A stretch of 52,042 nt of DNA from a virus (IMGVR_UViG_3300021475_000019:1-52042); one strand, 5' to 3'. Counted from the stretch's first letter, positions 5,693 through 22,833 are shown. Translations and numbers: made by a program. Notes: generated from the sequence alone by a model not told the origin.

Positions 5693-5722
5693 AAAAGGGG
5701 CCCCGCAGGGCCCCTTTTTTTT
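5693..5722. terminator. Bidirectional intrinsic terminator
   Basis: aaaaggggccc-cgca-gggccccttttttttt between convergent genes. Confidence 0.85.
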
Positions 5723-6285: not shown

Positions 6286-6349
6286 TATGGATGATCCCCG
6301 GTTCTAAACGATAGCCAGGATTTACCATGTTCGTGCGACAAATGCGCGA

Positions 6350-6550: not shown

Positions 6551-6647
6551 AGGGGCAGATCTTTGGCCCACACTGACAATGGCGCTACGGGCGCGGCGCG
6601 TTATATGATGGCCCAGAGACATCATGTCCGCTGGTAGGGAAACTGCA

Positions 6648-7284: not shown

Positions 7285-7288
7285 ACCG

Positions 7289-8128
7289 CTACTGCCCTGG
7301 GATCCACTGATCCCAGGGCCCGCCCTGCTGCCGCATCGACGACGCGCCGCCCAGAATAAGGTTCTGGATCGCCTGCCGCGTTGGGGCCGAGCTGGCCACG
7401 TGATGAACCAGCTCCCCGGCCTTCTCGCCCACCTTGTCGAGCCCCGCCCACAGGCCGAGCAGGCCCGCGCCTTCCTTAACGACATCGCCTCCGGCCCATC
7501 CCCCAAATAGCTTGTGAGCGCCGTAAGTGATCCCCGCCTTGAGGCCCTCGTCGGTGAGCTTCGGCAGGACTTTCGGAGCGGCGCGGGCGACGCCCTGACC
7601 GAGCAGGCCCGCGATGCCGCCTCCGGCAGTGTCCTGGGTAATGGTCGACCAGGGGTTCCCAGCCGCGTAGCTCTTCAGCCCCTCATGCACGCCCCCCGCG
7701 AGTTCAGGCCCCACGTAGGGGACCGCGTTGAGCAGCGTCGTCGGGCTCAGGATGTTGCCCACGAAATCCGCGCTCGTCGCCGCCTCAGGGCTGAGGCGCG
7801 CTCTGGCGGCGGCATAGTTGGCGGGGTTCTGCGCCATAGCTTCGTTGCCAGCGATGTCGCCGAAATCCTGCACCGATTGCGGAACCGTCAGCGCCGGGCC
7901 GCCTTTGTACCACGGGTTGCTCCAGTCGATGCCCCAGCCGCTGGGCGAGGCGGCAGCGGCGTTGGGATCAGCGGGTGCGGGTGCGGGTGCTGCTGCAACG
8001 GGCTTCGCGCCCGTCGGATTGAAGTCGCTGAATGCGCCGCCAGCAGGCTGCTTCGGCTGCGGCGCTGCCACGGGTTGGTCTTTCTGCTTCGCGCCCGTGG
8101 GGTCGAAGTCGTCGAATGCGCCTGCCAT
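7289..8128 (-). CDS. Putative virion/ejection protein, allele A
   Basis: Last gene of the late operon, Ala/Gly-rich. Homologue at 49912-50778. Confidence 0.6.
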   Translation of the reverse strand: MAGAFDDFDPTGAKQKDQPVAAPQPKQPAGGAFSDFNPTGAKPVAAAPAPAPADPNAAAASPSGWGIDWSNPWYKGGPALTVPQSVQDFGDIAGNEAMAQNPANYAAARARLSPEAATSADFVGNILSPTTLLNAVPYVGPELAGGVHEGLKSYAAGNPWSTITQDTAGGGIAGLLGQGVARAAPKVLPKLTDEGLKAGITYGAHKLFGGWAGGDVVKEGAGLLGLWAGLDKVGEKAGELVHHVASSAPTRQAIQNLILGGASSMRQQGGPWDQWIPGQ

Positions 8129-8131
8129 CGG

Positions 8132-9589
8132 TCACTCCAAGGCGGAAGTGTCGTAGCCCTTATCCTTCAGATGCTTGAGCGCGGAGCGCGGCCCGTAGTG
8201 TTCCACGGCGTTCTGGAAATCGAGCTTGTCTTGCTCCGTCAGTTGCTTGAGGTCCTTGTTCGGCTGGACCGACTTCCCAATGGGGCCGCCAGGATCAAGG
8301 TCGCCGCCCGACTGATACATCGGATCAAGGTAGGGCTTGAGATAGCCGGGTATGTCGGAGAGCCTGCCAGCCGCGCCATAGGCGTTGGCTTGGGCGGTGA
8401 GCGCGAGCTTGATCTTCGGCGCGATGACCTCCTCGCGATAATTGCCGATGCCAAAGTTGGTATAGTCCTCAGGGTTCGCACCCAAAGTTGCGAGGTTCTG
8501 GCCAACGCCCTTGGGGCCGCCGCGCGCCGACAAGACCTTCGCCGTGCCAGCCAGCCCCTCCATCTTGCTGTGCAGATTGTAGGCCTCCGTTCCAGGGGCC
8601 AATCCTTCGAGCCAGCCCTTGCCAACGGCCTTCGCTGACCCGGTGATCTCGTCGAGTTTGGGCGAGTTCGAGACGTCGGCGAGATCGTCGACGAACTTGC
8701 CCAGGCCTTGGTTCATGCCGTTGAACTGACCTTTCGCGTCGGTCAGGTCCTTGTTGTACAGGCTCCACTTCGTCGGGTCGGTCAGATAGCCGGGCATTGG
8801 CCTGCCCTTGTTGGCCGGATCGTTCTGCCATTGCGTTCGGGCGAACGCCATTGACTTCATGTCGCCGGTCATCCCCGGCAGGCCGCCCGTAATTATCATC
8901 GGCAAATAGTTGTTTTTCCAGTCCTCCTCCGAGCCGCCGCCCTTGATGAACTGGTCATGCTCGAACTGGATGTTCCGCTGCGTGTCGGTCGGCTCCATCT
9001 TTGAGATGAGGTCGGGGCCTTTACCGGCGAGGATCATGTCGCGCGAGGTGCCCGGCGGCAGGCCGAGCTTCGTGTCGTAGTCGGAGGCGTGGGCAAGCAT
9101 ATCCTGCGTCGCGCCCTGCTGCTGCATCGCGGTGTGCAGGCTCATCAGGTTGCCGACCGTCTGGCCCGCATCTTCGCCGCCGCCGGTCAGGCTCTGCATG
9201 ATCGACTGGCGCATCGAGGGCGGGCTGTGGTTGGCGGCGATCAGCGCAAGCCCGCTATTGATCCCCTGCATCGCCCGGTCGCGCTGCTGCATCTGCATGT
9301 ACAGCGACATGATGTTCGGCGGGTTGGCGAGCGTCTGGTAGCTCGCCGACATGTCGGGCGTCGACTGGAGCGCCTGCGGCTGCGGCGGCGAGTTGGGCGG
9401 CGGTGGAGCGCCTGGCGCTGGGTTGGGCGGGGGCGCGTTGGGATCGGCGCTCACCGGCTGCGCGTTCGGTGCTGGCGCGTTCGGGTTCTGCGGCGGCGCT
9501 CCTGGCGGCTGCTGCCCAGAGAGCATCGCCGCGAGCTGCCGCGCCGGGTCGGGGGCGCCCAGGTACAACAAATCGGCTAGACCGGCCAT
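8132..9589 (-). CDS. Putative DNA ejection (internal virion) protein
   Basis: 485-aa Q/G/P-rich helical protein in the ejection-gene position. Conserved in copy B. Confidence 0.6.
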   Translation of the reverse strand: MAGLADLLYLGAPDPARQLAAMLSGQQPPGAPPQNPNAPAPNAQPVSADPNAPPPNPAPGAPPPPNSPPQPQALQSTPDMSASYQTLANPPNIMSLYMQMQQRDRAMQGINSGLALIAANHSPPSMRQSIMQSLTGGGEDAGQTVGNLMSLHTAMQQQGATQDMLAHASDYDTKLGLPPGTSRDMILAGKGPDLISKMEPTDTQRNIQFEHDQFIKGGGSEEDWKNNYLPMIITGGLPGMTGDMKSMAFARTQWQNDPANKGRPMPGYLTDPTKWSLYNKDLTDAKGQFNGMNQGLGKFVDDLADVSNSPKLDEITGSAKAVGKGWLEGLAPGTEAYNLHSKMEGLAGTAKVLSARGGPKGVGQNLATLGANPEDYTNFGIGNYREEVIAPKIKLALTAQANAYGAAGRLSDIPGYLKPYLDPMYQSGGDLDPGGPIGKSVQPNKDLKQLTEQDKLDFQNAVEHYGPRSALKHLKDKGYDTSALE

Positions 9590-9744
9590 TTCCGTTCTCT
9601 TAAGTTAGCCCTGCGCTCCGCAAGGCGGTGCTCGGCGGTGCTGGGTCCGGCAAAGCTAGGCAGCGCAGGGCTCGGCGCGGCATTGCCCGGCGGCGCATCG
9701 CCCGGCAAGGCAAGGGGGGGCCGAGCCCACAAGGTTCGGCCCTC
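9578..9744 (+). ncRNA. Stand-alone GGC-NN cassette 1 (promoter, 19 units, hairpin)
   Basis: TAGACC-17-TAAGTT (9578-9606), units 9619-9713, hairpin gggccgagcc-cacaa-ggttcggccc (9718-9742). Confidence 0.75.
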
Positions 9745-9745
9745 T

Positions 9746-10522
9746 TCATTGTTGCGGCCTCGCCTGGATCGCGCGCAGGGCGCTCAAAAAGTTCGTGTTC
9801 ATGCCCTGACCTTGACCCGCCTGATTGAGGAAGGCGGCATTGATGCCTCCGCTAGGTTGCGAGCCGCTCACCATCGGCACATTCGCGCCCTGCGTCACGG
9901 GGTTGCCGGGGTTCGCCAGCGCACTCAACGCCGCCTGCCAATTGTTGGGCGCAGCGCCAGCCCCGCCCGCCTGCTGCGCGCCCTGGGGCGCTCCTTGCTG
10001 CTGGCCCATCGGGTTGTAGCCCTGGAGGCCAGAGTTCATCCACGCCAGCGCATTCGAGGCCTGCGGATTGCTGCCGCTCGGATTGCTACCGGAAGCGACA
10101 AAGCCGCCTGACGGCATCATCGCGTTGCCAGCCTGATACTGGCCTATCGGACCCATGGCGGCGGATCTCTGCTGCGGCGACAGCGTCTGCCACTGCGGAA
10201 TGCTCAAGCCGCCCCGCTGCTGCGAGGCTGGCGTGTTCTGACCCTGCACATCCTGAACGCCAGCGAACGGGTTGCCCGACGGCGCTTGCGGCTGTTGCGG
10301 CGTCGAGTTGATCGACATGCCAGCGGGGTTGGCCGCCTGCCAGTTCTGGAACGACTGGATCGGCTTGCCGGTCGCGGCGTTGACCGGGGCTCCGGCGTAG
10401 GTCGGCGGCCAGGGCAAGGCCGCCCCGTTGTAGTTCGAGAACTGGTTCGACTGCTGCGACGGGTCGAACATCGTCGGGTTGAGCATCCAGGTGTTGGTGA
10501 GCGCAGCGAGATCCTGGGCCAT
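9746..10522 (-). CDS. Q/G/N-rich putative virion protein
   Basis: 258-aa ORF in the late operon with typical codon usage. Confidence 0.6.
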   Translation of the reverse strand: MAQDLAALTNTWMLNPTMFDPSQQSNQFSNYNGAALPWPPTYAGAPVNAATGKPIQSFQNWQAANPAGMSINSTPQQPQAPSGNPFAGVQDVQGQNTPASQQRGGLSIPQWQTLSPQQRSAAMGPIGQYQAGNAMMPSGGFVASGSNPSGSNPQASNALAWMNSGLQGYNPMGQQQGAPQGAQQAGGAGAAPNNWQAALSALANPGNPVTQGANVPMVSGSQPSGGINAAFLNQAGQGQGMNTNFLSALRAIQARPQQ

Positions 10523-10525
10523 GGG

Positions 10526-12088
10526 TCACGTACTCCCGAAGCCGCCGCCGTACCCGGCGTTGGCGTACATGTCATAGGGCGACATCTGCCCCGACATCAG
10601 CGCCATCTGCAATTGCGATGGCGAATTGAGCGTCGTCCCCGGCATCCCTGGCACGCCGGTCGCTTGGCCGGGCATCATGGCCGGGACCACGGGCTTCGTG
10701 GCGGCGAGCGCGCCATAGTAGGAGGCGGGCTGCGGCTGCATCGAAAAGCCCCGCTGGGCGAGGTCCTGGGCGGCGAGGGCGCGGCCCAGGATGTTCTGGC
10801 CGCCGGGCTGCATCATCATCGGGCCGCCCATGGCCTGCGCCGGTTGGGCCTGCTGCAGGCGCATCGGCTCCGGCTCGTTGGTCTGCCCGCCCCCGCCCAG
10901 GCTCTTTAAGGCGTCCTGCGCCATCTTGTTGGCCGGGGAGCCGGGCTGGAAGCCCGGCAGGGTCGTCCCGGCTGTTGGGGTGGCCGGAGCGGCTGGAGTG
11001 GCCGGAGTGGCTCCAGGGGCCGTCGTAGGGGCTCCTGACGCGGCGGCCGCCGTAGGGGCTCCTGACGCGGCGGCCACGGCCGGGCCGGGCTTGAACGTCG
11101 AGCCGTCGAGGCCCGCCGTCGCCCGCGCGACATAGTTCGCGTTCGACGTGTAACGGTCGTTCGCCGCGCCGCCAGCGACGTTGTAGGGCTTGCCGGTGAA
11201 CCAGATCGAGGCCGCGTCCTTGGGGCCATAGAGTTGCAGGCTGCGCTGCATCTGGTCGCGGAACACCGCCTCCTGCGCCGCCGGGCTGGCTTTGAACTGA
11301 TCCGGCGTCAGCGAGTGGCCGAGCGCCGCCTGTGTCCATCCAGGGACGTTCTCCGGCATCACCTGATATTTGCCGATGGCTTGCCCGCGCCCGCCCTTCA
11401 CAACCGGGCCGAGCGCCTCGTAGGGGTTCTTCCAGCCGCCGCTCTCGATCTGCGCGATGTTGCGGGAGAGCGTGTCGATGACGTTGTTCGAGTTCAGCGT
11501 CGTGCCGGGGGGCGCGGCCGAGCTGCTCGACGTGGTCGTCGGCGCGGGAGCGCCGCTCGCAGCCGTTGGGCCTTCGGGGGCGCCGCTCGACGCCGCCGAG
11601 CCGCCGCCGCCGAGTTCAAAATGCGGCGCGTCCTTGAAGGTTTTGAAGTTGCCGCCCCAATTGACGCCGATGCCAAGCTTTTGTGACGCGGCCAGCATCG
11701 CTTGGCTGATCTGTTTCTGCTGGCCTGGGTCGAACTGCACCCGTCCGTTGCTGTCCAGGCCCCACAGATCGACGGCGTTGCCCTGCATGTGGACGTTCGC
11801 GTCGCCGCCGTCCTGGGCGCCGACCCTCGACCAGTCCCAGGCCTTGGCCTGATCCTGATCGGCCGCGCTTCGCTTGCCGTTGCCGATGACAAAGTTGAGG
11901 TTTGGGTTGTCAGCCCTGGCTTGCGCTATGACCTTCTGCAGATCAGGGCTGAGGCCCGACAGGTTCTTCGCGTCGTTGCCGACTGGGTCGGGGTTCCAGC
12001 GCAGAAACATGGGGAGCTGCTGGCGCCCATGGCTGTCGATGCGCGGGATCTTGGCGTAGACGCCGCCGGGGCCGAAATTGTCAGCCAC
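10526..12088 (-). CDS. Virion-associated peptidoglycan hydrolase: M15 peptidase + lysozyme-like domain
   Basis: RS..DQ...H..GNAVD...WGGNFKTFKDAPHFEL (M15 type), and IAQIESGG...AIGKYQVM...ASIWFTG (lysozyme/transglycosylase fold). Confidence 0.8.
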   Translation of the reverse strand: MADNFGPGGVYAKIPRIDSHGRQQLPMFLRWNPDPVGNDAKNLSGLSPDLQKVIAQARADNPNLNFVIGNGKRSAADQDQAKAWDWSRVGAQDGGDANVHMQGNAVDLWGLDSNGRVQFDPGQQKQISQAMLAASQKLGIGVNWGGNFKTFKDAPHFELGGGGSAASSGAPEGPTAASGAPAPTTTSSSSAAPPGTTLNSNNVIDTLSRNIAQIESGGWKNPYEALGPVVKGGRGQAIGKYQVMPENVPGWTQAALGHSLTPDQFKASPAAQEAVFRDQMQRSLQLYGPKDAASIWFTGKPYNVAGGAANDRYTSNANYVARATAGLDGSTFKPGPAVAAASGAPTAAAASGAPTTAPGATPATPAAPATPTAGTTLPGFQPGSPANKMAQDALKSLGGGGQTNEPEPMRLQQAQPAQAMGGPMMMQPGGQNILGRALAAQDLAQRGFSMQPQPASYYGALAATKPVVPAMMPGQATGVPGMPGTTLNSPSQLQMALMSGQMSPYDMYANAGYGGGFGST

Positions 12089-13517
12089 GCAACCCTCCTG
12101 CCACGCGCGCCACGCGACCTGGGGGCCGCATCTTTGGCGCCCGCATGCTCGCGCCCATTGCGCCGGTCAGCCCCATCGGCGCGCTGGCTGCGAGCGGCCC
12201 CGGCGCCCGCGTCACAAACCCGCCGCCCGCGCCCGGCATGCGCTGCGGCCGGATCGCCGGGGTGTTGTCGTTCATCGGCCCGGCTGCATTGAGCGCGTTC
12301 ATGTCGACGCCATGGATCGCCTGCCCGGTCGGCTGATGCACGCCCATCGTCTTCACCGCGTGCGGCGCGACCTGCATCACGTCTTCGGCCATCGGCCCGG
12401 CTACCTTGGGGTACGACTTGGGGTCCCCTTTGTAGCGGTAGCTGTACATCGGCAAGCCGGTCGGCTGGTGGACGCCGGTCTTGGTGATGTCGGTCTTGAG
12501 GTGCCGGTCTGAGGTGTTCAATCCGACCGCCCCGCCGAGCGCGCTGCCAATGCCCGCGAACGGGCCGCCCGGGCCGACCATGCTGCCGAGCGCCTGCAAG
12601 CCGCCCGTGACATCCGACATCAGCGATGGCGTCGTCGTCGTTTGCTGCTGCCCCGTACCGGAACTCATCGTCGTCGAGCCGTAGGGCGTCTGGCCGAGCG
12701 CCGACTGCAGGATGCCGTACTGCTGGGTCGGGTAGGCGTTCGCCTGATTGAACTGTCCTATGTTGGCGTTGATCTGGTTTTGCGCCTGCTGCTGCTGCTG
12801 CGCGCCAGCGGTCGACAGCTCCAAGAATTGTTGGCGTTGGTTCTGCTGCGCCTGCGAGCCGAGCGTGCCGAGGCCACCCGCCGCCTGGATCAGCGAATTG
12901 ATGTTCGCCTGATCGGCCTGCTGGTTGCCCTGCTGGGCCGACAGGTCGCGGCTGATGTCGCCGGTCGCCGCCGCCTGCGCTTGCTGGAAATTCGCTTGGT
13001 TCAGTTGGCTCGCCATTTGCCCGATGTTGAGCGCGCCTTGAGCCTGCGCGACGCCCTGCTGCACGCCCTGCCTGCTGCCTCCGAATGCGTTCGCCGAGTT
13101 GGCCTGATTGGCTCCTTGGTTTTGGGCGAGCGCATTTTGTTGCTGCATCAACGGCAGCGTCGAATTGATGACGCTCTGCGTGTACGGGTTCATGTAGGGC
13201 TGGAGATTGGTGTTGGCGAGCGACTGCGCATTGACCTGGGTCGCGGGCGTGCCCGCCGCCGTGAGGTAGGCGGCCTGCGAGGCGTTGTACTGATCGGCGC
13301 CCGCACCTCCCGACGTGGCGGCCAAATTCCACGCCTGCTGCGTCTGCGGCCCGATGTCGGCGACCTGCTGGCCCTGGTATTGCTGCAGCGGCCGACCGGC
13401 GACATTCTGAGCCAGCGCATAGTTCTGCTGCGCCGCCTGATTGACCCACGGCGGGAGCTGCGTCTGGCTGATGTTCGACTGGTTCGACTGCTGGTCGGTT
13501 GAGCCGGAACTGCCCAT
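12081..13517 (-). CDS. DNA ejection/pilot-like protein with peptidase S74 (intramolecular chaperone) domain
   Basis: Q/A-rich N-terminus (YMNPY, AFGGSR) and SDRHLKTDI...YSYRYKGD...GPMAEDV. Confidence 0.7.
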   Translation of the reverse strand: MGSSGSTDQQSNQSNISQTQLPPWVNQAAQQNYALAQNVAGRPLQQYQGQQVADIGPQTQQAWNLAATSGGAGADQYNASQAAYLTAAGTPATQVNAQSLANTNLQPYMNPYTQSVINSTLPLMQQQNALAQNQGANQANSANAFGGSRQGVQQGVAQAQGALNIGQMASQLNQANFQQAQAAATGDISRDLSAQQGNQQADQANINSLIQAAGGLGTLGSQAQQNQRQQFLELSTAGAQQQQQAQNQINANIGQFNQANAYPTQQYGILQSALGQTPYGSTTMSSGTGQQQTTTTPSLMSDVTGGLQALGSMVGPGGPFAGIGSALGGAVGLNTSDRHLKTDITKTGVHQPTGLPMYSYRYKGDPKSYPKVAGPMAEDVMQVAPHAVKTMGVHQPTGQAIHGVDMNALNAAGPMNDNTPAIRPQRMPGAGGGFVTRAPGPLAASAPMGLTGAMGASMRAPKMRPPGRVARVAGGLRG

Positions 13518-13518
13518 C

Positions 13519-14007
13519 TTAGAGTTCCTTCACGTAGAGTTGGTTCCTCGACCTCAGTCGCCAGCCGAGGCGGCGGTAGCTGCCCTCGCGCAGCCAACCG
13601 AGCCGCCCATAAGTCGAGAGCAACCCGGCGTTGACCTCGTCGGCGTAGGCCAAGATTTTGGCGTGCAGCGCATCGACATCGGTGAGGTCGCCGACGTAGG
13701 CGATAAGCTCCAATTGCCGCGCGCGTGGAAAGTCCGCAATCTTCGTGATCGCCCAACTGTTGCCCTCGACGAACGACTGCATCCGCCCTTCAGCGATGGC
13801 GGTGAGGATGTCCGACAAGATGTACGTTCCGCCCATTCTATCGAGTAGACGGCTCAATTTTCGGTGGTAGGATGCCGTGTCGCTGCATTGCGGCGGCGAG
13901 GCATGGCTCGGCCTGCCTGGGCTACGCAGGGCTGGGCCTTGCTTGGCGCGGCTTGGCATAGCGAGGGAGGCGGCTTCGGCCGCCTCTATCTTTTCGGGGC
14001 GGTTCAT
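13519..14007 (-). CDS. Phage virion-module protein (GNAT-like fold possible); N-terminal part overlaps an antisense array
   Basis: ATGA coupling with the upstream gene at 14004-14007. Conserved-looking core WAITKIADFPR...GRLGW. Alternative start at 13836. Confidence 0.6.
   Translation of the reverse strand: MNRPEKIEAAEAASLAMPSRAKQGPALRSPGRPSHASPPQCSDTASYHRKLSRLLDRMGGTYILSDILTAIAEGRMQSFVEGNSWAITKIADFPRARQLELIAYVGDLTDVDALHAKILAYADEVNAGLLSTYGRLGWLREGSYRRLGWRLRSRNQLYVKEL
13846..13986 (+). ncRNA. Stand-alone GGC-NN cassette 2 (promoter, 14 units, UUCG hairpin)
   Basis: TAGACG-16-TAGGAT (13846-13873), units 13895-13964, gaggcggc-ttcg-gccgcctc (13967-13986). Confidence 0.75.
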
Positions 14008-14282
14008 GGCTGGCCCCCGCCGAGCGGGACCTGGGTGATCCGAAACGAGCCGTTGCTCAACACCTGCAGCATGAACACGGGCGGGTTTGTTCCGGCGGGC
14101 GCGTCAGCCGCCTGAAATAAAACCCCCGGCAGCGCCTGATGCGCGGGCAACTTGTCCTGAAAACCGTTGCGGCACCACAGCGCGAAGGTGCGCAGGTAGT
14201 TGGTCAGCGTCTCGCTCACATCCGGCATCGAGGGCAGATCCGGCGGCGGCTGGGGAGCGGCGACGGTGGGACGCGGAGCCAT
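14004..14282 (-). CDS. Hypothetical virion-module protein
   Basis: 92-aa ORF coupled to its neighbours. Confidence 0.6.
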   Translation of the reverse strand: MAPRPTVAAPQPPPDLPSMPDVSETLTNYLRTFALWCRNGFQDKLPAHQALPGVLFQAADAPAGTNPPVFMLQVLSNGSFRITQVPLGGGQP

Positions 14283-15892
14283 CAGCGATCTCCTCTCGGA
14301 ACGGCGTCGATCAAATGCTGACCGAGCGTGAAGGGCTGGATCACCGGGGTCGCCACATCGATGCGCAGGCGCATGTCGCGGCCGGTCTGGCGAAAATCCA
14401 CATAGCCGTCGGAGCGCACCGGCCGGGGCGTCGACTGCAGCTCAGGGGCGCCCAGGCTGCGGCTGTTCCGATAGAACAACGAATAGCGCAGACTGCCGAT
14501 GGCGTTGGCGATTGAGACGGGATCGGTGGCGTCGACCGCCTCGACATCGGGGATCATCTGCTTGACGGTGATCAGCCGCGCGCCTGATGTGAGGTTGAGG
14601 TTGAACGTCTCGGCGAACGGCAGCACGACCGGCATGTTGTCGTTGGCGTAGGTCGCGCCGACCTCATGCTGAAAGGCAACAGTATCGTCGGCGAAGATCG
14701 GGTGCGCGGTGTACGAGCTGGTGATGCCCGCCGAGCGCGAAAGATTGCACTGGCCCCACCAGCCCTCCTTGTAATTGTAGACCCCCGCGCGCGTGTTGGT
14801 GGGCTTGCCGATCTGCGGGAAGAACCACCACCATTCCGAGAACTCGCCGAGGTGCGCGGCGAAGCTCAACTCACGCACCGCGATGGGGTCGATGTCGTCG
14901 TCGATCCACGGCCGGATCGGGCACACCACCGGCACAATCGAGGTGCCGTCGTAGGAGAACATGCCCTGCTCGCTGAACCACAGCGTCAGCGCCGAGGTGG
15001 TGGTCATCGACTGCGGCGACCAGGGCGTCGTGCCGTCGGCCAGCTCGACCGCGTTGTAGACGTACGGGAGCCCCAGGAAGCGAGAGGTGTAGACCTTCTT
15101 GCCGGTCCAGAAGATCACGCCCACCCTGGTGGAGAGCGCGCAGATGATCGGGCTCGCGGGCTCGATGTCGAGGAAGCCCGCCTGCGAGGTCACGTTGCTG
15201 TAGTCCCACGCGCCGGGGTTCTCCTGGTCGCACCATGCAAACCTTCGGCTCGATCCGCCGCCTGCGGTGCCGTCCTGGGTCGTGCCGAAGATCATGACAA
15301 ATCTTTCCGGCGTGATGACGAAGCAGCGCCCGTGCGGCACCGTCGAACCGCTCGCCGCTGGCTGCACCACCGCCGGGCCGCCGACGGCCGGGTCCCACAT
15401 CAGGAGCCGACTGTCGGCGCTCGTCATCGCGTAGAGGATCGAGCCGAAATTATCCAAGGAGTAGCTGTCGGGGACCTTGGTGATGGCGACGCTGCCGGGG
15501 ATCGAGCGCGGCGTGCCGTAAGTGTCGTCATTGTAGAGGCCGTCGCCGAAGCCGCCCACCAATCCGCTTGGCGGGACGATGCCGTCGGCCGGGGTGATGT
15601 CGGTCAGCGCGCCGCCCGTGTCGACGTAGAGGTTCGTCTCGCAGAGATAGGCGATGTGGTACTGGCCATCGAGGCCGTACCAGCCGTGGATCATCTTGCA
15701 GCGTGAGGCGAACACGTATTTCTCGACGCCGCCGACGACGTTGGTGAACTGCGCCTGCCCGCCCATCGGCGTGAGCTGCTGCTCGCGCCAGCGCATGAAG
15801 TTGACCTCGGCCCAGTTCGAGGACTGCATCTTCTTCGTCGGCATGGCGACGACGCCGGGCGGGATCTGGATCGGGCGAAAGTCTGTACTCAT
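14282..15892 (-). CDS. Tail tubular/nozzle (P22 gp10-like DNA stabilisation) protein
   Basis: 536-aa beta-rich protein starting MSTDFRPIQIPPG, with WCDQEN and EWWWFFP motifs. Position in the podovirus module. Confidence 0.65.
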   Translation of the reverse strand: MSTDFRPIQIPPGVVAMPTKKMQSSNWAEVNFMRWREQQLTPMGGQAQFTNVVGGVEKYVFASRCKMIHGWYGLDGQYHIAYLCETNLYVDTGGALTDITPADGIVPPSGLVGGFGDGLYNDDTYGTPRSIPGSVAITKVPDSYSLDNFGSILYAMTSADSRLLMWDPAVGGPAVVQPAASGSTVPHGRCFVITPERFVMIFGTTQDGTAGGGSSRRFAWCDQENPGAWDYSNVTSQAGFLDIEPASPIICALSTRVGVIFWTGKKVYTSRFLGLPYVYNAVELADGTTPWSPQSMTTTSALTLWFSEQGMFSYDGTSIVPVVCPIRPWIDDDIDPIAVRELSFAAHLGEFSEWWWFFPQIGKPTNTRAGVYNYKEGWWGQCNLSRSAGITSSYTAHPIFADDTVAFQHEVGATYANDNMPVVLPFAETFNLNLTSGARLITVKQMIPDVEAVDATDPVSIANAIGSLRYSLFYRNSRSLGAPELQSTPRPVRSDGYVDFRQTGRDMRLRIDVATPVIQPFTLGQHLIDAVPRGDR

Positions 15893-16686
15893 TGGTATTT
15901 GATGATGAAGTTGAGTTGCAGATAGGGCGGCATGTTGTTGTGCGCCGCGCCGCTGCCCGCGTTCTGGGTGGTCGAGAGGCCGGTGCCGCTGGCGTTGACC
16001 CCAACTGCGGGCTGTTGCGTGTCGGTGTTGCCGCCGAGGTTGCCAGCCGTGTCGGTGTTGCCGCCGAGGTTGCCAACAGTGCTGGTCGCCACTGTTGTGT
16101 TCTGTTGAAAATAGGATGGCGCATCCCCTCTCACCGCTATGCCGCCGCCAGTGCCCCATTGTTGGACGGTGTGCGCGTGGCTCCCAGTCGTGATGCCGTG
16201 GGCGTGGTTGCCGGTCGTGATGCCGTGGCTGTGCGCGTTTTGCTGGGCGGTATGCGAGTGGGCGACATCAGTGATCGGATGCGCGTGCGCCGCTAGCTCG
16301 GCGGCGGTGAGGACGTGCGTCGCCTCGCCGCCGGTCTGGCCAAGAACCTCTCCATTCGTCATGCCCATCGGAAATCTTCCGACTAGATTGGGCAGACTGA
16401 AGTTCGCGCCGCTACCGCCGAACATATAGCCAACCACGGCGAACAGCGTTGCATAGGTCGTGGTGTTGAGTGACTGACCAGCGCAAAGCATCCAGTTCGA
16501 CGGCATATTCGATTGCGGGCCGCCAAACATCGTGATCGCGCCAACCGGAACGAGCCCCTGCTGATTGACGAACACCTGGGCGTCGACCTTCTGGGTCGTC
16601 GCGTTGAGCGTGGCTCCCCAGGTGTTGGCCGACGCGCCGGGGTCCGGCATCGTCCAGCCATAGTTTGGGGTGGTTGTCTCAGCCAC
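15889..16686 (-). CDS. Tail fibre protein with tail-collar domain
   Basis: VPVGAITMFGG...WMLCAGQ...Y..LFAVVG..FGG.GANFSLPNLVGRFP, H-x-H repeats, and HNNMPPYLQLNFIIK. Confidence 0.85.
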   Translation of the reverse strand: MAETTTPNYGWTMPDPGASANTWGATLNATTQKVDAQVFVNQQGLVPVGAITMFGGPQSNMPSNWMLCAGQSLNTTTYATLFAVVGYMFGGSGANFSLPNLVGRFPMGMTNGEVLGQTGGEATHVLTAAELAAHAHPITDVAHSHTAQQNAHSHGITTGNHAHGITTGSHAHTVQQWGTGGGIAVRGDAPSYFQQNTTVATSTVGNLGGNTDTAGNLGGNTDTQQPAVGVNASGTGLSTTQNAGSGAAHNNMPPYLQLNFIIKYQ

Positions 16687-16936
16687 TGTCGCTCTCCAAT
16701 GCGTCGACGCGCGTCTCAAGGTCGGCGACGCGGTCCTCGACCGGAACGACTTCCGGCAAGGTGGTGGCGGGCGGCGATGCGGCCTTGGGCTCGTTGCCCT
16801 CGTCGAGCCACGCGAGATATTCCTGATAGTCGATGTTGTCGGGATCGAACGGGATGAACGCGCCGTCCTCGTCGCGGACGATGACGCTATCGTGCGGCTT
16901 GTTGTTCATGTGATCCCAGACTTGCGTGTAGGTCAT
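16679..16936 (-). CDS. Small tail-fibre-associated protein
   Basis: IPFDPDNIDYQEYLAWLDEGNEP motif, common downstream of phage fibres. Confidence 0.65.
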   Translation of the reverse strand: MTYTQVWDHMNNKPHDSVIVRDEDGAFIPFDPDNIDYQEYLAWLDEGNEPKAASPPATTLPEVVPVEDRVADLETRVDALESDSG

Positions 16937-16938
16937 GG

Positions 16939-19095
16939 TCAAAGCTCCGCGCTCGCCGTCCAAGCAGAATTCCACTGCGCCGCGCCAGTGGCTGTGAGAA
17001 GTCCGTAATCGTTAAATCCACCAACACCGCCAGCTGGCGGTGAGAAGGAAGTAATGTTAGTTACACCAGTACGGTTCATAGTAACCGTTGGTGATGCTCT
17101 CGTAGTTACTGGGTAAGAAAAGAAAGTACCGAGATTTTGAGAAGCGCCGCCATAAACCAAAACGAACGGAGAGCCATTAGAACTGCAATAATACCTCTGG
17201 CAATCGGCCAAGCTCTTGGTCAGCGACTGCCGGTTGTAGGGCGTTGCTACGCTGCCGACCTCAAGCTTGACGCCGGTTATGCTAAGACCCGCGCCGTTAG
17301 TGGCGACGACATTGACTGCGCCGTTCGCACCAACAAAATTTCCTCCTTGCCACAAACCATTCGCAGGACCGCGATAAGTCGCGCCAGTGCCAAGGTCGAA
17401 GGACAAGATGCAGGCGGCTGCATTGCCGCTCATCACCCATGTTCCGCCTGTATCGCCGGGGATAGTAACGACAATTTTCGTATCGGTATTTGCAGCCGGA
17501 ATGGAATAAGTGAACGGATAACTTCGCGTGCCAGCGAAGTTGCTCAGCGAACCGCCAAATGTCCCGGCTAAGGAACTCGCTGCGTGGAAGCTCAGCGTAA
17601 CTGGTTGCGCATTCGCCATCCCCCAACAAAAATCGCTGATCACGTCGGCTTCAATCCTCTGCGTAAAAAGGAAGAAATCGCCCGTCAGCGGCGTGTATGC
17701 CGAGGATGAAGTAAAATTCAAATAGTAAGGAAATCCAGAGGCGCTGCTGCCCGATCCACGAACCCAAGTTCCCCTAGCTGCCTGGGTCGCACTATACTGC
17801 CATCGATCACAGGTATAGCCGCTCGCTGTCCCGCTCGCGCCGCCGTTGCGCTGGTCGATCCGCATGTCGCCGTTGATGATGCGGTTGTCGCCCATCGGCA
17901 CCGGCAGAGCCGAGGTCGCGGCGCCGACAAATGCTGTCGTCGCAAGTTGAGTGGTGTTCGTAGCTGGAGCGGCGGTTGGCGCCGTCGGCAGGCCGGTCAA
18001 CGCTGGCGACGCCAGCGGCGCTCTGGTCGTATCGGTCGGATGAACGTGATCGGCCCGCGCCCACGTCGTGCCTGTTCCGACCGCCGCCGTCCCGTTCATT
18101 AAGGGGGTCGTGGTCGAGGCGACCGGAACCGCCGCCGTCAGCGCGTAGGGCGCGAGCGTCGCCGTCCAATCGGTGATGTCGGTATGCGTCAGATGCGCCC
18201 AGGCTTGGCTCTTGCGGGCGTAAGCCGTGCCGTCGTTTGGCGCGTCGGTCATGCCGCCAGGCGCGACTTGCCAAGCGAGGTTGCGCCGAGCGTAATATTG
18301 CCCGTCGTTTGGCGCCTCGGCGACGCCGGGATTGGCCCACGACAAAGCCGCCGAGCCGTTGGTCGTAAGCACCTGTCCAGCCGAGCCGCCGGGAAGATAG
18401 AACGAGCCCGGTCCTTGCAGGGCGAGCGTCCCGTTGACCGCTGCGCCATTGTTCATGTTCACGGGACCGGCGAAAGCCGTGGCGCCGTCCGCTCGCGCGA
18501 TGGTCAGCCAAGTGCCGAGAAACGTGCCGGTGAGACCATAAGCAGACAGGCTGAAATTCGAGCCGGTGTTGTTCAATCCCTCGGCTGTCTGATCGCCGAG
18601 CTGCAACTGCCACCGCGTGAGCCCTGATGTCTGGCCAAGGATGGCGCGCTGGTTGCCCGCCGCAGCGTTCAACACCATGCTGTTCGGGCCGTTCACGGTC
18701 ATGATGCCGGTGACCGTCAGGCTCCCGGTAATCGTGCCGCCCGTGATGGCGAGCGCGGCGTTCCACGCGCCGTTCATGCGACCATAAGTCGCACCGTCGC
18801 TCGGCGCGTCGGCCTGGATCGGGACTAGCGCCCAGGTCGAATTGAACCGGCCGAAAAGCTGCGTCGTGTTCGGCGCGTCGGGGATGATCTGCGGAATGAC
18901 GACCCAAGCCCCCATGTCGCGGGCGTAGGGCTGCTGATCCATCGGCGCTTCTTCGATGCCGCGCACGTCGGCGATGGTCCTGAGCTGGGCGTCGATCCCA
19001 TCGAGGTTGACGTTCCACTTGTCGCCCCAAGTGTCGTCTGAGGCGCCGACATCGGGCTTCGTCCAGCCGTAGTTGGCGGTGAACGTGTCAGCCAT
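16939..19095 (-). CDS. Tail fibre / receptor-binding protein
   Basis: Repeated DAP.DG..Y.R motifs, SPALTGLPTAPT, DNRIINGDMRIDQR...LADCQRYY carbohydrate-binding-type C-terminus. N-terminus (NYGWTKPDVGAS.DTWG) is shared with 15889-16686. Confidence 0.8.
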   Translation of the reverse strand: MADTFTANYGWTKPDVGASDDTWGDKWNVNLDGIDAQLRTIADVRGIEEAPMDQQPYARDMGAWVVIPQIIPDAPNTTQLFGRFNSTWALVPIQADAPSDGATYGRMNGAWNAALAITGGTITGSLTVTGIMTVNGPNSMVLNAAAGNQRAILGQTSGLTRWQLQLGDQTAEGLNNTGSNFSLSAYGLTGTFLGTWLTIARADGATAFAGPVNMNNGAAVNGTLALQGPGSFYLPGGSAGQVLTTNGSAALSWANPGVAEAPNDGQYYARRNLAWQVAPGGMTDAPNDGTAYARKSQAWAHLTHTDITDWTATLAPYALTAAVPVASTTTPLMNGTAAVGTGTTWARADHVHPTDTTRAPLASPALTGLPTAPTAAPATNTTQLATTAFVGAATSALPVPMGDNRIINGDMRIDQRNGGASGTASGYTCDRWQYSATQAARGTWVRGSGSSASGFPYYLNFTSSSAYTPLTGDFFLFTQRIEADVISDFCWGMANAQPVTLSFHAASSLAGTFGGSLSNFAGTRSYPFTYSIPAANTDTKIVVTIPGDTGGTWVMSGNAAACILSFDLGTGATYRGPANGLWQGGNFVGANGAVNVVATNGAGLSITGVKLEVGSVATPYNRQSLTKSLADCQRYYCSSNGSPFVLVYGGASQNLGTFFSYPVTTRASPTVTMNRTGVTNITSFSPPAGGVGGFNDYGLLTATGAAQWNSAWTASAEL

Positions 19096-19363
19096 GCCGC
19101 CTCCATGGCGTGGGCGGCAGCGGCGCTTGCTGGCTGAACGGCGCGCAGACCATCTCTTGGCCCCAGACGCCGCCGCCGACGATGGCGCACCGGCCGTAAG
19201 GTCCCGCCCCATAGGCCCCGACGCCATAAGGCCTGCGGCAGACGGTGAGCCCCTTCCAGCCCGCATCGTCCAGGCACGGGCCAGGGGGCCAGGGCGCGAG
19301 CGGGGGAACGACCTCAGTCCAGCCTGGATCGCCCTCGCAAGGAGTTGGCGTCCAGGTCGTCAT
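19088..19363 (-). CDS. Hypothetical Cys/Pro/Gly-rich protein
   Basis: ORF coupled to both neighbours (YGVGAYGAGPYG). Confidence 0.5.
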   Translation of the reverse strand: MTTWTPTPCEGDPGWTEVVPPLAPWPPGPCLDDAGWKGLTVCRRPYGVGAYGAGPYGRCAIVGGGVWGQEMVCAPFSQQAPLPPTPWRRHG

Positions 19364-19986
19364 CCAAACGACCTCCGGCGGGGCGTGGTGACGCGCGAGC
19401 CGCTCGCCTTCGATCCGAGGTGAGCGGTGTTCAATTTCTGGATCATGTCCTCGGCGAGCTGCTTGAAATTGGCGGCCGATTGCTCCTCGCCGACGGCGTG
19501 TAGGGCGGCGTGCATCAGCGAGGCGAACAGGTAGAGCTGCGGATGTTTGGTGTAGATCCAGCTCGGCTGCGTGTCGCTGAAAGTCGGGACCTCGCCATAG
19601 TAGGCGAGCTTGTACTCGGTGCCGTCGACCGGATCGGGCTCGCCGCCGAAGTACATCGTGCGGCCGATGATGGTGTAATATTGCCAAGTATGGGTATCGC
19701 GCTGATTGAAGAACTCGTCGCGGGCCTTGTAGCGCGCAGGCAGGAAGCCATCGGCGCCGTTCTCATTGGCGACCCGCACAAGGTCCATCGCCAGCCAGTC
19801 GTCGGGCAATTGCGCGCAGCGCGAGGTGATGATCCCGTCGTCCATCTGGATCATCTCAGCGACCCTAAGCTCTTGATTTAGCTTGCTTTCCGCCATGCGA
19901 ACAAAACTGGTGACGAGCGCGTCACTCCAATCGGCGCGGTTGCTCCACTCCGCGATCTGCGACTTGAGGTCACCGAAGTCGGACAT
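19360..19986 (-). CDS. Head-tail adaptor protein
   Basis: DLKSQIAEWSNRAD...FVRMAESKLNQELR...WIYTKHPQLYLFASL pattern of podovirus adaptors. Confidence 0.7.
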   Translation of the reverse strand: MSDFGDLKSQIAEWSNRADWSDALVTSFVRMAESKLNQELRVAEMIQMDDGIITSRCAQLPDDWLAMDLVRVANENGADGFLPARYKARDEFFNQRDTHTWQYYTIIGRTMYFGGEPDPVDGTEYKLAYYGEVPTFSDTQPSWIYTKHPQLYLFASLMHAALHAVGEEQSAANFKQLAEDMIQKLNTAHLGSKASGSRVTTPRRRSFG

Positions 19987-20106
19987 TAAGCTGCCCTCCT
20001 CCGCAAGGCACGGCTGAGCATTGCTAGGCTAGGCACTCCCTGGCGTGGCGGCGCACGGCGAGGCGGGGCAACGGGGGCGGCTCTGCATTTGCACGCAGAG
20101 CCGCCC
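19964..20106 (+). ncRNA. Stand-alone GGC-NN cassette 3 (promoter, 14 units, hairpin)
   Basis: TTGAGG-17-TAAGCT (19964-19992), units 20002-20071, 12-bp stem gggcggctctgc/gcagagccgccc (20075-20106). Confidence 0.75.
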
Positions 20107-20137
20107 TTAAAGCACGTCCGTGGGAGGACAGACGCGC

Positions 20138-20389
20138 TCATGCCAACCCCATCAACGCGATGCTGTAACGGCCAAAAAGACCGGCGCATTCCGCTAACCT
20201 CCAAATGAACAACAAAATCAGGATCGCGATCACGCCGCCGATCACGATCCTGATGATGTCCCAGTAGGGCGCAGCCGTGATGTTGGCGAACCAGCTTCCA
20301 AACGCCGCCCGAAGCAGCGCGAGGATGACCAGCACGACGATGATGAAGATTGCGACCTTGAAGATCAGGTCCATACCAAAACCGCACAT
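20138..20389 (-). CDS. Small membrane protein (holin-like)
   Basis: Two TM segments, downstream of the endolysin. Confidence 0.55.
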   Translation of the reverse strand: MCGFGMDLIFKVAIFIIVVLVILALLRAAFGSWFANITAAPYWDIIRIVIGGVIAILILLFIWRLAECAGLFGRYSIALMGLA

Positions 20390-20697
20390 TACGGTGGCTC
20401 CTTCCTGCGGCCGAGCCAGTGGGCGACGATGGCGCCGAACCCGGCGACCAACCCGCCGATGGCGCCCGACGTGATCTCGTCGGTGGGGATGGTGAAGAGG
20501 GCGCAGAAGGTGACGAGCGCGAGGAAGGACAGCACGACCAGGAGCGAGATGGTGAGCGTGCCGCCGGTCGCATCGAACTTGCTGGCGACAACGAGCAGGA
20601 TGGTGGTCAGCAAGACCACAATCATCAGGCCCAAGGACGCCGGATAGTCCATGAGCTTCGGCAGCGGATTGGGGGTGACGACGAGCGGATCGGCCAT
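20389..20697 (-). CDS. Membrane protein (holin candidate)
   Basis: Three hydrophobic segments and a basic C-tail, adjacent to the endolysin. Confidence 0.6.
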   Translation of the reverse strand: MADPLVVTPNPLPKLMDYPASLGLMIVVLLTTILLVVASKFDATGGTLTISLLVVLSFLALVTFCALFTIPTDEITSGAIGGLVAGFGAIVAHWLGRRKEPP

Positions 20698-21302
20698 CAG
20701 CCCTTCGCCTTCCATCGTGCGTAGGCGTTGGCCATCTTCTGGTCGTAGGCGTTCGCCGCGTAGCCGGGCCCGTTGTAGCCGCGCGCGAAGGTCGCCCACT
20801 GCTTGGCGCGCAGCGCGGTGTGGAGCTTGGGGTCGGCCTTGATGAAGGCGACGAAGGCATCGAGGTGCGCGGACGCGCCGCCGGTCCACATCGCGTCGAC
20901 AAATTCCTGCGAGTTATCGAAGCCGCAGACGCGGTGGTTCTGGCCGAGGATCTGGAACGTGCCCCAACTGCAGGCCTTGTTGGCCGCGTCGGGGTCGAGC
21001 GCGCGGGCGTCCTCGTAGCGGGCGTGCTGGGCCGCGCCGGTCGCGCCGTAGAGCGCCTTGTTCCAGCTCGGTGAACTCAGCGCGACGCCGCGCCGATCCT
21101 TGGCGTGGGCGTGCTTGCCGCCCGTCTCTTTGTGGAAGACATGGGCCTCGTAGAGGATCGCCGGTCGGCCGTCGGGCAGGAACCCGGCCCCGGCCGCCTC
21201 GACCTCGGCGACGGCGCGGATCGCGGCGACCTCCACGTTCAGCTCCTTGGCGGCGCGGGCGAAGTCGGCATCGGTCAGGGTGCGTTGCGGCTCGTCGGCC
21301 AT
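20697..21302 (-). CDS. Endolysin, N-acetylmuramidase (DUF3380) family
   Basis: AVAEVEA.G.GF...P.ILYEAHVF, SWGTFQILGQN, FARGYNGPGY..N.YD.KM. Confidence 0.9.
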   Translation of the reverse strand: MADEPQRTLTDADFARAAKELNVEVAAIRAVAEVEAAGAGFLPDGRPAILYEAHVFHKETGGKHAHAKDRRGVALSSPSWNKALYGATGAAQHARYEDARALDPDAANKACSWGTFQILGQNHRVCGFDNSQEFVDAMWTGGASAHLDAFVAFIKADPKLHTALRAKQWATFARGYNGPGYAANAYDQKMANAYARWKAKG

Positions 21303-21601
21303 CAGACGCGCCCGTTGTAGACGGCGAAGGCGCGGCCCTCGCCGTTGTACCATTTGCGCCAGTCGCCTTCGTCCCACCCCTCGCGACAGGCGCGCTCGTA
21401 GATAATCGCGGGGACATGATGCGTGAACTTCATGTCCCCGTTGTTGGCCATGATCTCACGGTCGCGCGCCACCGCGTCGAGGATCGGCTCCAGGTCCTGT
21501 TCAGTCAGGATGTGGAACGGACCATCGGGATCGCCATCGTCCCAGATCAAGGTCCTCCTGATCCCGTGGCTGTCGCGGTAGACGCGCTTTCGCTCAGACA
21601 T
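21302..21601 (-). CDS. Conserved phage protein downstream of capsid
   Basis: 99-aa ORF (QDLEPILD...VPAIIYE...W). Confidence 0.65.
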   Translation of the reverse strand: MSERKRVYRDSHGIRRTLIWDDGDPDGPFHILTEQDLEPILDAVARDREIMANNGDMKFTHHVPAIIYERACREGWDEGDWRKWYNGEGRAFAVYNGRV

Positions 21602-21723
21602 TAGGTTGGCCTCGCGCAACGCGAGCCATGGCATGGCAGGGCAGGGCTGGGCCGAGCAAAGCGCGGCCTGGCAATGCAAGGCGAGGCTGGCAAGGCGTGG
21701 GGCGGCGGCCAGTAGGCCGCCGC
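21579..21723 (+). ncRNA. Stand-alone GGC-NN cassette 4 (promoter, 17 units, hairpin)
   Basis: TAGACG-17-TAGGTT (21579-21607), units 21615-21698 (one 4-nt unit), gcggcggcc-agta-ggccgccgc (21702-21723). Confidence 0.75.
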
Positions 21724-21739
21724 TTCTGCTTGCTTAAGC

Positions 21740-22726
21740 TCACTTCTTGATGCCGTTAAACAGAATGTGGGCGAGCGGGTTGCGCATTTCCAGACCCCAT
21801 TCGCAGACGATCATGCGCGTCTCGGCGTCGCCGGTTCTGGCCATTAACAATTGCCTGAAGGCGCGGAAGAACGCGACCGCCGCATAGTCGGGATCGATCA
21901 GGAGCCCGATGTCGGGCTGCAGCCAGCGCGACGGCGCGACCTTCACCCGGCCGAAGTCGGTGGCGATCACGTCGATGGTGCTGACCACCTCGGTCTTGCC
22001 GACCAGGACCTGCGAGGTCGAGCGGCCGGTGAACGAGGAGATCGTGCGCTTCGGGCCCGGCGGGACGATCCACATCGTGGGCGAGCCGCCGTTCTGGTAG
22101 GCCTGCTGCATCGCGTCGCCGAGCATTGCCTCGGTGATGGTCACCTGCACCCCGGCGGCGGGGGCCGCGAAGACATCGGTGGCCGCCACCGGCAGGCCGG
22201 TCACGACGGTGCCGGGCGCGACGGCTGCGGCGACGGTCGAGTTTTTGTCGACGGCGCGGCCGAGCCAGTGGGCGAAGGCCTCGGTGGTCCTCGCGGTGGG
22301 GCCCGTGTCGTTGCCGTCGTTGCGTTGCTGGCGAGAGCAGAGGATGCTCTCCATGTCCGACTTCAACACCTTGGCGGCGAGGGCCATCTGGTGGGCCATC
22401 TCCGACCCCTTGCCCGCCGCGTCGCTCTCCTCCTGCGAGCCTGAGACGGTGGCGTCGCGTTCCGAAATCTGGGTCACATTGTTGCGGCGGATCGTCGGCT
22501 GAGACGGGCCGTTAGCCAGGGCGAACCCTTCAAGTTGGGCGTTGCCAAGGTTAACGAGCGGCAGGAACTCGGTCTGCCAATCGAAGATCCTGTTCTTTAC
22601 ATTGCGCCGCCGGATTGCCGACATAACCGGCGTATCGAACGGGTCAATGTTATAGATGGCGTTGGAGAGATCTTCGCGGTTTGCTTGGGCGTTATAAGTC
22701 GTGAATGCGTTCGTGACCTTGGGCAC
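21740..22726 (-). CDS. Major capsid protein (SU10/DUF5309-like)
   Basis: NREDLSNAIYNIDPFDTP...WQTE.L...NNVTQI...TDFG. Follows the scaffold gene. GTG start with RBS AAGGA. Confidence 0.85.
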   Translation of the reverse strand: MPKVTNAFTTYNAQANREDLSNAIYNIDPFDTPVMSAIRRRNVKNRIFDWQTEFLPLVNLGNAQLEGFALANGPSQPTIRRNNVTQISERDATVSGSQEESDAAGKGSEMAHQMALAAKVLKSDMESILCSRQQRNDGNDTGPTARTTEAFAHWLGRAVDKNSTVAAAVAPGTVVTGLPVAATDVFAAPAAGVQVTITEAMLGDAMQQAYQNGGSPTMWIVPPGPKRTISSFTGRSTSQVLVGKTEVVSTIDVIATDFGRVKVAPSRWLQPDIGLLIDPDYAAVAFFRAFRQLLMARTGDAETRMIVCEWGLEMRNPLAHILFNGIKK

Positions 22727-22833
22727 GGGGTATATCCTTTCGGGCAAGAGGGATCGCCGCCGGTAGTTGGCGGACAATTGGCTCTAGCCCGAAGGTCTAG
22801 ACTATGCGCTCCAGCCCTAAGACTGGACAGTAC

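Follow-up and report, generated by a model that had tools for sequence, protein, structure and literature searches.

Why should a temperate phage keep short repeat arrays within its virion genes, pointing against the direction of the late operon? The question is raised by IMGVR_UViG_3300021475_000019, a viral record of 52,042 nucleotides that was analysed over its whole length (the window) and in which four cassettes of GGC-NN pentamers lie on the + strand between late genes encoded on the - strand. A first-pass annotation had proposed that the cassettes are stand-alone genes for guide RNAs that act in trans with a RAMP protein encoded elsewhere in the window. In part this holds up: the core of the proposal is supported by a match of the RAMP-like protein to Vipr and by decoding of the guides with one skipped nucleotide per unit. 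We estimate at roughly 80% the probability that the four cassettes encode solo vrRNAs for the VIPR system of this phage itself and read rivals' alleles of a flanking gene; they are solo by position only, as the published definition of a solo vrRNA presupposes an element that lacks vipr, and the window genome has vipr.

In the VIPR system, taken here and below as described in the preprints, the small ancestral RAMP protein Vipr coats guide RNAs (vrRNAs) that consist of 9–16 GGY-NN pentamers and a structured tail. The variable NN dinucleotides read double-stranded DNA with one base skipped per unit, usually the wobble base, and the targets are competing phages (10.64898/2026.04.26.720920). Exemplars come from Escherichia phage SUSP1 and a Pseudomonas fulva prophage (10.64898/2026.04.26.720920; 10.64898/2026.04.26.720927). 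Published loci were analysed within 20-kb windows and with an 80% NN cut-off (10.64898/2026.04.26.720920), and solo vrRNAs have been reported from F5 satellites and VIPR-null SUSP1-family phages (10.64898/2026.10.15.759431). Since VIPR was published in 2026 and stand-alone vrRNAs have been published too, the cassettes are not a new kind of system.

Pentamer arrays and the Vipr protein

Arrays were read by eye and with a period-5 caller, using 100 dinucleotide-preserving shuffles of the window as the null. The window holds 10–11 period-5 GGC-NN arrays, with GGC on the + strand in all but one, and 11 calls scoring at least 7 were observed on its + strand. The best shuffle score was 7, reached in 2 of 100 shuffles, compared with scores of 11–20 for the four arrays that the annotation had placed opposite the late genes. 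G occupies unit position 1 in 11/20, 11/14, 9/14 and 9/12 units of cassettes 1–4 on the + strand (55–79%), compared with 3, 2, 1 and 2 units on the - strand, and positions 2–3 read GC in nearly all units; these counts by strand place the GGY register on +, opposite to the late genes. With 12–20 units of GGY plus a variable NN, the cassettes have the pentamer structure of vrRNAs. The bounds of cassettes 2 and 3 are as annotated, whereas cassette 1 has 20 units rather than 19 and starts earlier, and cassette 4 has 12 in-phase units instead of 17, with three degenerate units at its 5' end and, on the 3' side, a stretch one base out of phase. CGCAA opens three of the four arrays, as had been noticed, and also opens cassettes in the related loci L006, L020, L021 and L002. 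A search of the whole window against Rfam at gathering thresholds gave zero matches.

The reading frames of g13519 and g21302 are open through their upstream cassettes (13836–14007 and 21601–21733). The 11 codons preceding the ATG at 13836 have their counterpart by homology in the first 14 codons (N-terminal) of g13519 genes that have no cassette, and cassette 2 therefore lies inside a former 5' end of g13519.

The RAMP-type protein of the window matches PDB entry 36pp, 'SUSP1 Vipr protein', with an E-value of 1.7e-5 in phmmer and of 2.1e-9 with a profile of 21 homologues. The best Foldseek matches of its AF2 model (pLDDT 78) are Csm3/Cas7 chains. The open reading frame belongs to phrog_4652 and is without a Pfam family match; its family comprises at least 1671 proteins at E ≤0.001 within the searched length range, and tblastn against the phage collection returned five distant records only. 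The RAMP-like protein of the window is Vipr, and the system belongs to the recently published VIPR kind. The cassettes are indeed remote from vipr, at a measured distance of 8.6–20.6 kb.

An A1-type Vipr profile did not find vipr in the records of nine relatives (G001–G006 and G008–G010). These nine blanks prove nothing, since G001 holds a divergent Vipr that the profile missed. G001 is the record of the phage of locus L020; its Vipr (256 aa, in the region L089:11805–13501) matches PDB 36pp with E 3.8e-5 and is 22% identical to the window clade in a profile alignment. The record also contains an array cluster and several dispersed arrays, and it has the scaffold of the cassette between the major capsid protein gene (MCP) and g21302 in common with the window.

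Decoded targets of the guides in flanking genes

For decoding, the NN dinucleotides of each array were joined with 0, 1, 2 or 3 wildcard bases, and both strands of the window and of 0.90–1.05 Mb of related loci (about 100, with L numbers here) were scanned. Three loci were retrieved via Vipr, 80 via the capsid protein (IMG/VR), and one from an alphaproteobacterial metagenome-assembled genome; later ones came via g8132, g9746 and g13519, together with pieces of two whole relatives. About a dozen late gene families are each represented in the database by at least 13 matches. The longest perfect run was significant for cassettes 2 and 3 (0/60 shuffles). For cassettes 1 and 4 this statistic was not significant, which led us to compute an ungapped local score as well, in which a perfect unit counts +2, a half match -1 and a unit without any match -3. 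At a skip of one nucleotide, cassettes 1–4 score 23, 19, 20 and 17, and cassette 1 reaches 27 with L094 added to the database; at a skip of 0 or 2, none of the four exceeds 13. In 80 unit-order shuffles the maxima were 15, 14, 13 and 14, so that 0/80 attained the observed value for any cassette. The signals appear at the 1-nt skip only, and in all four guides the matches are in frame and the skipped base is codon position 3, the wobble position.

Every guide has its target in one of the two genes that flank its cassette (4/4). Cassette 1 decodes antisense to the start codon and 14 further codons of g8132 homologues. Its best match, with 14 of 15 core units and a local score of 27, is in L094, which is without a cassette at its own g9746|g8132 junction; L088 scores 23. 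Cassette 2, also antisense, corresponds to the last 12 codons of g13519 homologues and matches L017 and L102 at 23/28 NN positions, with a run of 8 units and a local score of 19. Cassette 3 reads the sense strand of codons ~99–108 of g19360 homologues, which encode the peptide TWMYYTLVGT; ten consecutive units are perfect in L011 and L036, at least 20/28 positions match in 13 loci, and the local score is 20. Cassette 4 decodes antisense to capsid codons ~303–312, near the C-terminus, where at least 14 loci agree with 9 of 10 core units while the third letters vary freely (local score 17).

The phage's own alleles at these four sites are poor matches (Table 1). Foreign alleles of the cassette 1 target score 15–27. 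For the other three targets, a score above that of the own allele is found in 71 of 78 homologues of the capsid gene, in 19 of 51 of g19360 and in 6 of 17 of g13519. In the own g19360 protein, which is 87% identical overall, the targeted peptide reads TWQYYTIIGR, with four replacements in 10 codons. The own capsid target differs by two switches between Arg codon families, one between Leu families and one Phe-to-Leu replacement. As decoded from the sequence, each guide spells a conserved coding stretch of the flanking gene in the form found in related phages, and the own allele is altered at the letters that would be read.

The same rule appears in relatives. Most of them are without an array at these junctions; at the MCP|g21302 junction an array is present in 3 of 68 relatives, and 13 junctions consist of a 4-nt overlap. 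Where cassettes occur, they are antisense to the late genes in 12 of 12 cases, covering four junction types (the four of the window, L006, L020, L021, L026, L093, L099 and two on the L002/L085/L098 contig). At the MCP|g21302 junction, the cassettes of the window, L006, L020 and L021 have a common promoter-like region and hairpin, whereas their NN strings and targets differ, and the guides of L006, L020 and L021 read g21302 alleles of other phages; the L020 guide matches L033 at 27/32 positions with 12 perfect units. Five relatives' guides match homologues of their flanking gene (L006 16, L020 25, L021 19, L026 17, L098 19) and exceed all 40 shuffles, whose maxima are 13–15. Together with the four of the window, the flanking-gene rule holds for 9/9 cassettes with a significant target. 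For L006, L020, L021 and L026, self scores are 6, 10, 13 and 7, compared with 16, 25, 19 and 17 for the best foreign match. L099 is marginal, with a score of 14 that 2/40 shuffles attain, and so is L093; for the L002/L085 cassette at the g9746|g8132 junction, no convincing target was found in the loci database.

Long continuous arrays lie beside the vipr alleles at 85–400, 1033–1142, 43319–43503 and 44121–44390, with about 63, 22, 37 and 54 units, respectively. In the late-region database these vipr-flanking arrays (189 units) gave no run of 8 or more units and nothing above controls, with local scores of 12–15 compared with 10–14 at a skip of 0 or 2; the decoding method therefore does not create matches by itself. 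Their targets are probably in early or regulatory genes of other elements. For the arrays at 3798 and 40832, targets above controls were likewise not found in the late-region database, the minus-strand array at 40832 giving a local score of 16 compared with 12.

Table 1. Cassettes, accompanying signals, own-allele sites and reference genes of the window
Feature	Position	Strand	Properties
Cassette 1 hexamer pair	9578–9606	+	TAGACC-17-TAAGTT; -35 within codons 3–5 of g8132
Cassette 1 array	9614–9713	+	20 GGC-NN units, score 20; guide core units 3–17; between g9746 and g8132
Cassette 1 hairpin, then U-rich run	9714–9746	+	-26.2 kcal/mol, z -4.2; nearly identical in L002
Own allele, cassette 1 target (5' end of g8132)	9540–9598	-	24/40; perfect runs of 3 units at most; local score 10
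Cassette 2 hexamer pair	13846–13873	+	TAGACG-16-TAGGAT
Cassette 2 array	13895–13964	+	14 units, score 11; between g14004 and g13519
Cassette 2 hairpin and T-run	13963–13990	+	-20.4 kcal/mol; the only one of the four also in terminator scan
Own allele, cassette 2 target (3' end of g13519)	13520–13560	-	16/28; local score 6
Cassette 3 hexamer pair	19964–19992	+	TTGAGG-17-TAAGCT
Cassette 3 array	20002–20071	+	14 units, score 11; guide core units 2–11; between g20138 and g19360
Cassette 3 hairpin	20073–20108	+	-30.1 kcal/mol, z -6.8; weakest U-rich run
Own allele, cassette 3 target (in g19360)	19652–19692	-	16/28; local score 7
Cassette 4 hexamer pair	21579–21607	+	TAGACG-17-TAGGTT
Cassette 4 array	21615–21699 (in-phase core 21630–21689)	+	12 in-phase units, score 12; between capsid gene and g21302
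Cassette 4 hairpin and U-rich run	21699–21726	+	-28.4 kcal/mol; same stem, different loops in L006, L020, L021
Own allele, cassette 4 target (in capsid gene)	21834–21883	-	17/34; local score 8
Major head (capsid) protein gene, MCP	21740–22777	-	
vipr gene	429–1025	+	198 aa, RAMP-type; between the two largest arrays
Second vipr allele	43523–44119		

Transcription signals and alternative explanations

Promoter-like hexamer pairs are located upstream of all four arrays exactly where the first-pass annotation had put them, and the GC-rich hairpins that it described are present 3' of all four (-20.4 to -30.1 kcal/mol, z -3.2 to -6.8). A U-rich run follows the hairpin on the + strand only. The GGY register and the side of the U-run suggest that transcription is on the + strand. 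Two -35 boxes include a CTA codon, as had been claimed: that of cassette 1 via codon 4 of g8132, and that of cassette 2 in a segment homologous to the first 14 codons in cassette-less relatives. Those of cassettes 3 and 4 are formed by CTC-AAG and GTC-TAC codons. The -35 box of cassette 1 is retained in cassette-bearing relatives (L093 TAGACC, L002 TATACC), and cassette-less relatives have other codons there; codon 4 of g8132 is a rare CTA or ATA in three cassette-bearing contigs and in none of five without a cassette. The CTA codon of cassette 2, in the g13519 leader, is also found in L098 and L099, both cassette-bearing (three contigs in all), and the site reads GTT or GTC in four cassette-less relatives. 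L026 has a cassette homologous to cassette 3, with TTGAGG-17-TAAAGT in place of the cassette 3 pair, and both hexamers of cassette 4 are identical in L006, L020 and L021.

Several points weigh against cassettes that serve as independent guide genes aimed at rivals. Late-gene queries built the database, which forces matches into late regions, and better targets elsewhere are possible. Over the whole arrays the NN match is 62–82% (30/40, 23/28, 22/28 and 21/34 for cassettes 1–4), so that three of four fall under the 80% cut-off of the June preprint; the cores of 10–15 units match at 95–100%. A longest perfect run of 7 was attained by 5/60 shuffles for cassette 1 and by 3/60 for cassette 4. The own allele of the cassette 1 target still matches at 24/40 positions. 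The 3' tail of the cassettes is a plain terminator-like stem and not the pseudoknot tail of the SUSP1 vrRNA. The hexamer pairs are weak, and a generic sigma-70 scan of 9000–22500 lists 0/4 of them; the GTC-TAC (Val-Tyr) codons that form the -35 box of cassette 4 are also present in cassette-less relatives; and the common hexamer pattern, which occurs five times in the window on both strands, four of them at these sites, was defined post hoc from these four. For this uncultured phage, finally, we infer the RNA ends, the timing of expression and the loading into Vipr.

Recoding of the own cassette 4 target was considered as evidence of escape and rejected, since it is not a clear outlier and six-fold codon switching is common across the capsid family; this too speaks against our interpretation. 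Among 77 capsid genes, switching between Arg, Leu and Ser codon families is 0.31–0.48 in the three columns of the cassette 4 target, and 14 of 45 columns reach at least 0.31. In many conserved Arg, Leu and Ser columns the minority family (AGR, TTR, AGY) is used by 20–35% of sequences. The capsid genes (21740–22777 and 76 homologues) have about 87% GC at third codon positions. The switching may stem from selection by wobble-blind guides throughout the family, or from divergence alone.

The arrays might be real vrRNAs without promoters of their own, cut from a longer antisense transcript or made at some lytic stage only. The weakness of the hexamer pairs and their absence from the generic scan would fit this view, coding constraint can account for the -35 box of cassette 4, and other VIPR types have processed arrays (10.64898/2026.04.26.720920). 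However, the hairpins with their U-run on the + strand would terminate any long antisense RNA short of the following cassette, 1.5–6 kb downstream, and the rare CTA/ATA -35 codons track the cassettes (three contigs with and five without a cassette at one site, three with and four without at the other); we therefore regard an origin from long transcripts as unlikely, if worth keeping in mind. It is quite improbable that the cassettes are decoys or anti-VIPR devices that load a rival's Vipr and direct it toward harmless or self-serving sites. Solo vrRNAs of F5 satellites with such a role have been published (10.64898/2026.10.15.759431), and the window and G001 have the same cassette scaffold in spite of an identity of only 22% between their Viprs (profile alignment), which may point to a loose specificity of Vipr. 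Against this, the window phage, the L002 contig and G001 each have a vipr of their own, and what the guides match are late genes essential to rivals rather than repeats or decoy sites.

That every target lies in an adjacent gene family could also mean that the guides regulate their own neighbours, for example with partial matches that contribute to repression of the late operon in the lysogen, and the own allele of cassette 1 (24/40) is 16 nt from its array. Such self-regulation is very improbable, since the own alleles rank near the bottom of the matches (that of the capsid gene is surpassed by 71 of 78 homologues) with scores of 6–10, at or under the shuffle maxima of 13–15, and disturbed NN pairing is reported to abolish silencing (10.64898/2026.04.26.720920). 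Least probable of all is that the cassettes act as DNA-level repeats, for instance as binding sites for proteins, as hot spots of recombination or as plain intergenic terminators padded with GC-rich sequence. The lack of any Rfam family match would fit this, but it is contradicted by the decoding controls, and DNA repeats would have no reason to encode codon positions 1 and 2 of foreign alleles of the neighbouring gene at a 1-nt skip only. We thus retain the interpretation as positionally solo vrRNA genes that read rivals' alleles of a flanking gene.

Proposed mechanism and relation to known elements

Each cassette would be a compact unit resembling a moron: a weak promoter-like pair, ~10–15 GGC-NN guide units and a GC hairpin with a U-run. 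With late genes of opposite orientation on both sides, it might be expressed at times when the late operon is silent. By analogy with the mechanism in the VIPR preprints, the GGC triplets would be covered by protomers of Vipr so that the NN dinucleotides are exposed, and these would pair with double-stranded DNA with every third base skipped. The role of the guides would most likely be to silence the late operon of close competing phages, in a lysogen or in a mixed infection. The further proposal of the annotation, that late mRNA pairs with the guides as antisense and switches them off, is pure speculation.

As guide and putatively resistant allele are tightly linked, recombination would not part weapon from immunity. 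Tentatively, and as a whole with somewhat less than an even chance of being correct, we suggest that a cassette and the altered allele of its neighbour form a linked weapon-and-antidote module, which would spread among recombining phages like a nuclease-free marker-exclusion or drive element. In relatives that co-infect or superinfect, the guide would silence the prevalent allele of an essential virion gene, the adjacent resistant allele would protect the carrier, rare CTA/ATA codons of the neighbour would have been recruited as the -35 box of the guide, and the family-wide six-fold switching of Arg, Leu and Ser codons would be the scar of an arms race with a wobble-blind guide. If true, such a module would contradict the published view that targets do not escape by synonymous change.

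The window phage is like published VIPR carriers in having a RAMP protein of ~20 kDa and GGY-NN guides with a putatively structured 3' end on a phage or prophage, and in the 1-nt skip on the wobble base, targets on either strand and competing phages as targets. It differs in that the four guides are 8.6–20.6 kb from vipr, partly beyond the published 20-kb windows, and in that a simple GC hairpin and U-run form the tail where that of SUSP1 is a pseudoknot. Also, the arrays next to vipr run on over many units without a break (about 63 and 22), and the targets are virion genes, whereas the published ones are lysogeny regulators or a satellite recombinase. With published solo vrRNAs the cassettes share a location away from the vipr operon, a proposed action in trans and a self-match below the match to rivals; the published ones, in contrast, reside in vipr-less elements and redirect a helper's Vipr to REP decoys or target the vipr or vrRNAs of rivals. 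In the passages of the VIPR preprints that were consulted we found neither additional antisense guides between virion genes of a VIPR-positive temperate phage nor a guide beside a gene whose foreign alleles are read and whose own allele is altered; the supplements may differ.

Phage morons, as in HK97 and lambda, are promoter-gene-terminator units between late genes that are expressed from the prophage. The cassettes resemble them as small units with promoter-like and terminator-like ends between adjacent late genes, with a presence that varies among relatives. They differ in carrying a guide RNA instead of a protein gene and in their antisense orientation; expression of the cassettes from the prophage is putative. 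Free-standing homing endonucleases and marker exclusion in T-even phages, and virus-borne mini-CRISPR arrays against close relatives, offer a second comparison: as proposed for the cassettes, a weapon lies beside, or is directed against, the homologous locus of relatives and is co-inherited with a resistant own allele. However, no nuclease is evident in the cassettes, no gene conversion is implied and there is no repeat-spacer structure, and VIPR as published silences transcription.

These results indicate that additional guide genes can be dispersed over the virion operon of a VIPR-positive temperate phage, in places that annotation pipelines take for intergenic gaps or spurious extensions of reading frames. 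The rule that links a guide to its flanking gene offers a sequence-only route to guides, targets and immune alleles, and it suggests how a carrier may be safe without a signal for self and non-self such as a protospacer adjacent motif. A target might escape a wobble-blind guide through conservative replacements or through switches between six-fold codon families. Related soil phages would have their battlegrounds in virion genes, that of the major capsid protein among them.

As far as decoding can tell, the window phage is itself a target of relatives' guides. The L002:11015–11094 guide matches both copies of g8132 (8352–8398 and 51002–51048) at 26/32 positions, with 10 perfect units running. 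Two arrays of relatives, L012:245–309 and L011:3174–3218, lie upstream of their respective g24526 homologues, oriented like the late genes, and match window positions 26784–26821, just upstream of g24526, at 24/26 and 17/18 informative bases. The L002:2572–2656 guide matches positions 40924–40973 (24/34), abutting the sole minus-strand array (40832–40921); by analogy with SUSP1-like phages, this may be a guide against the guide locus of another phage.

The record comprises one phage genome of ~43 kb and the start of a second, related copy: positions 1–9368 are repeated at 43235–52042 with 75–95% identity. The duplicated 9 kb contain vipr, arrays, a methyltransferase gene, a PAPS-reductase-like gene, an integrase gene, a PEP-CTERM gene, g7289 and g8132. 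The duplicated ends represent either tandem related prophages or two strains of a circularly permuted ~43-kb genome joined by the assembler. The virion genes occupy the - strand from ~7.3 to 29 kb and include genes for an ejection protein, a tail fibre, structural proteins of phrog_2941 and phrog_3287, and an endolysin; megablast of 9000–22500 against the phage collection gave zero matches. The PEP-CTERM protein gene (5722–6285) adjoins the integrase gene. Downstream of vipr, positions 1200–3446 hold a phrog_15346 gene, a DNA methyltransferase gene (phrog_757) and the PAPS-reductase-like gene (phrog_424); the phrog_15346 gene is kept beside vipr in L001–L003 and is a candidate vipr-accessory gene. 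Contigs of two of four soil DNA runs (X1 and X2) hold the cassettes unchanged, and one of these runs may be the source sample.

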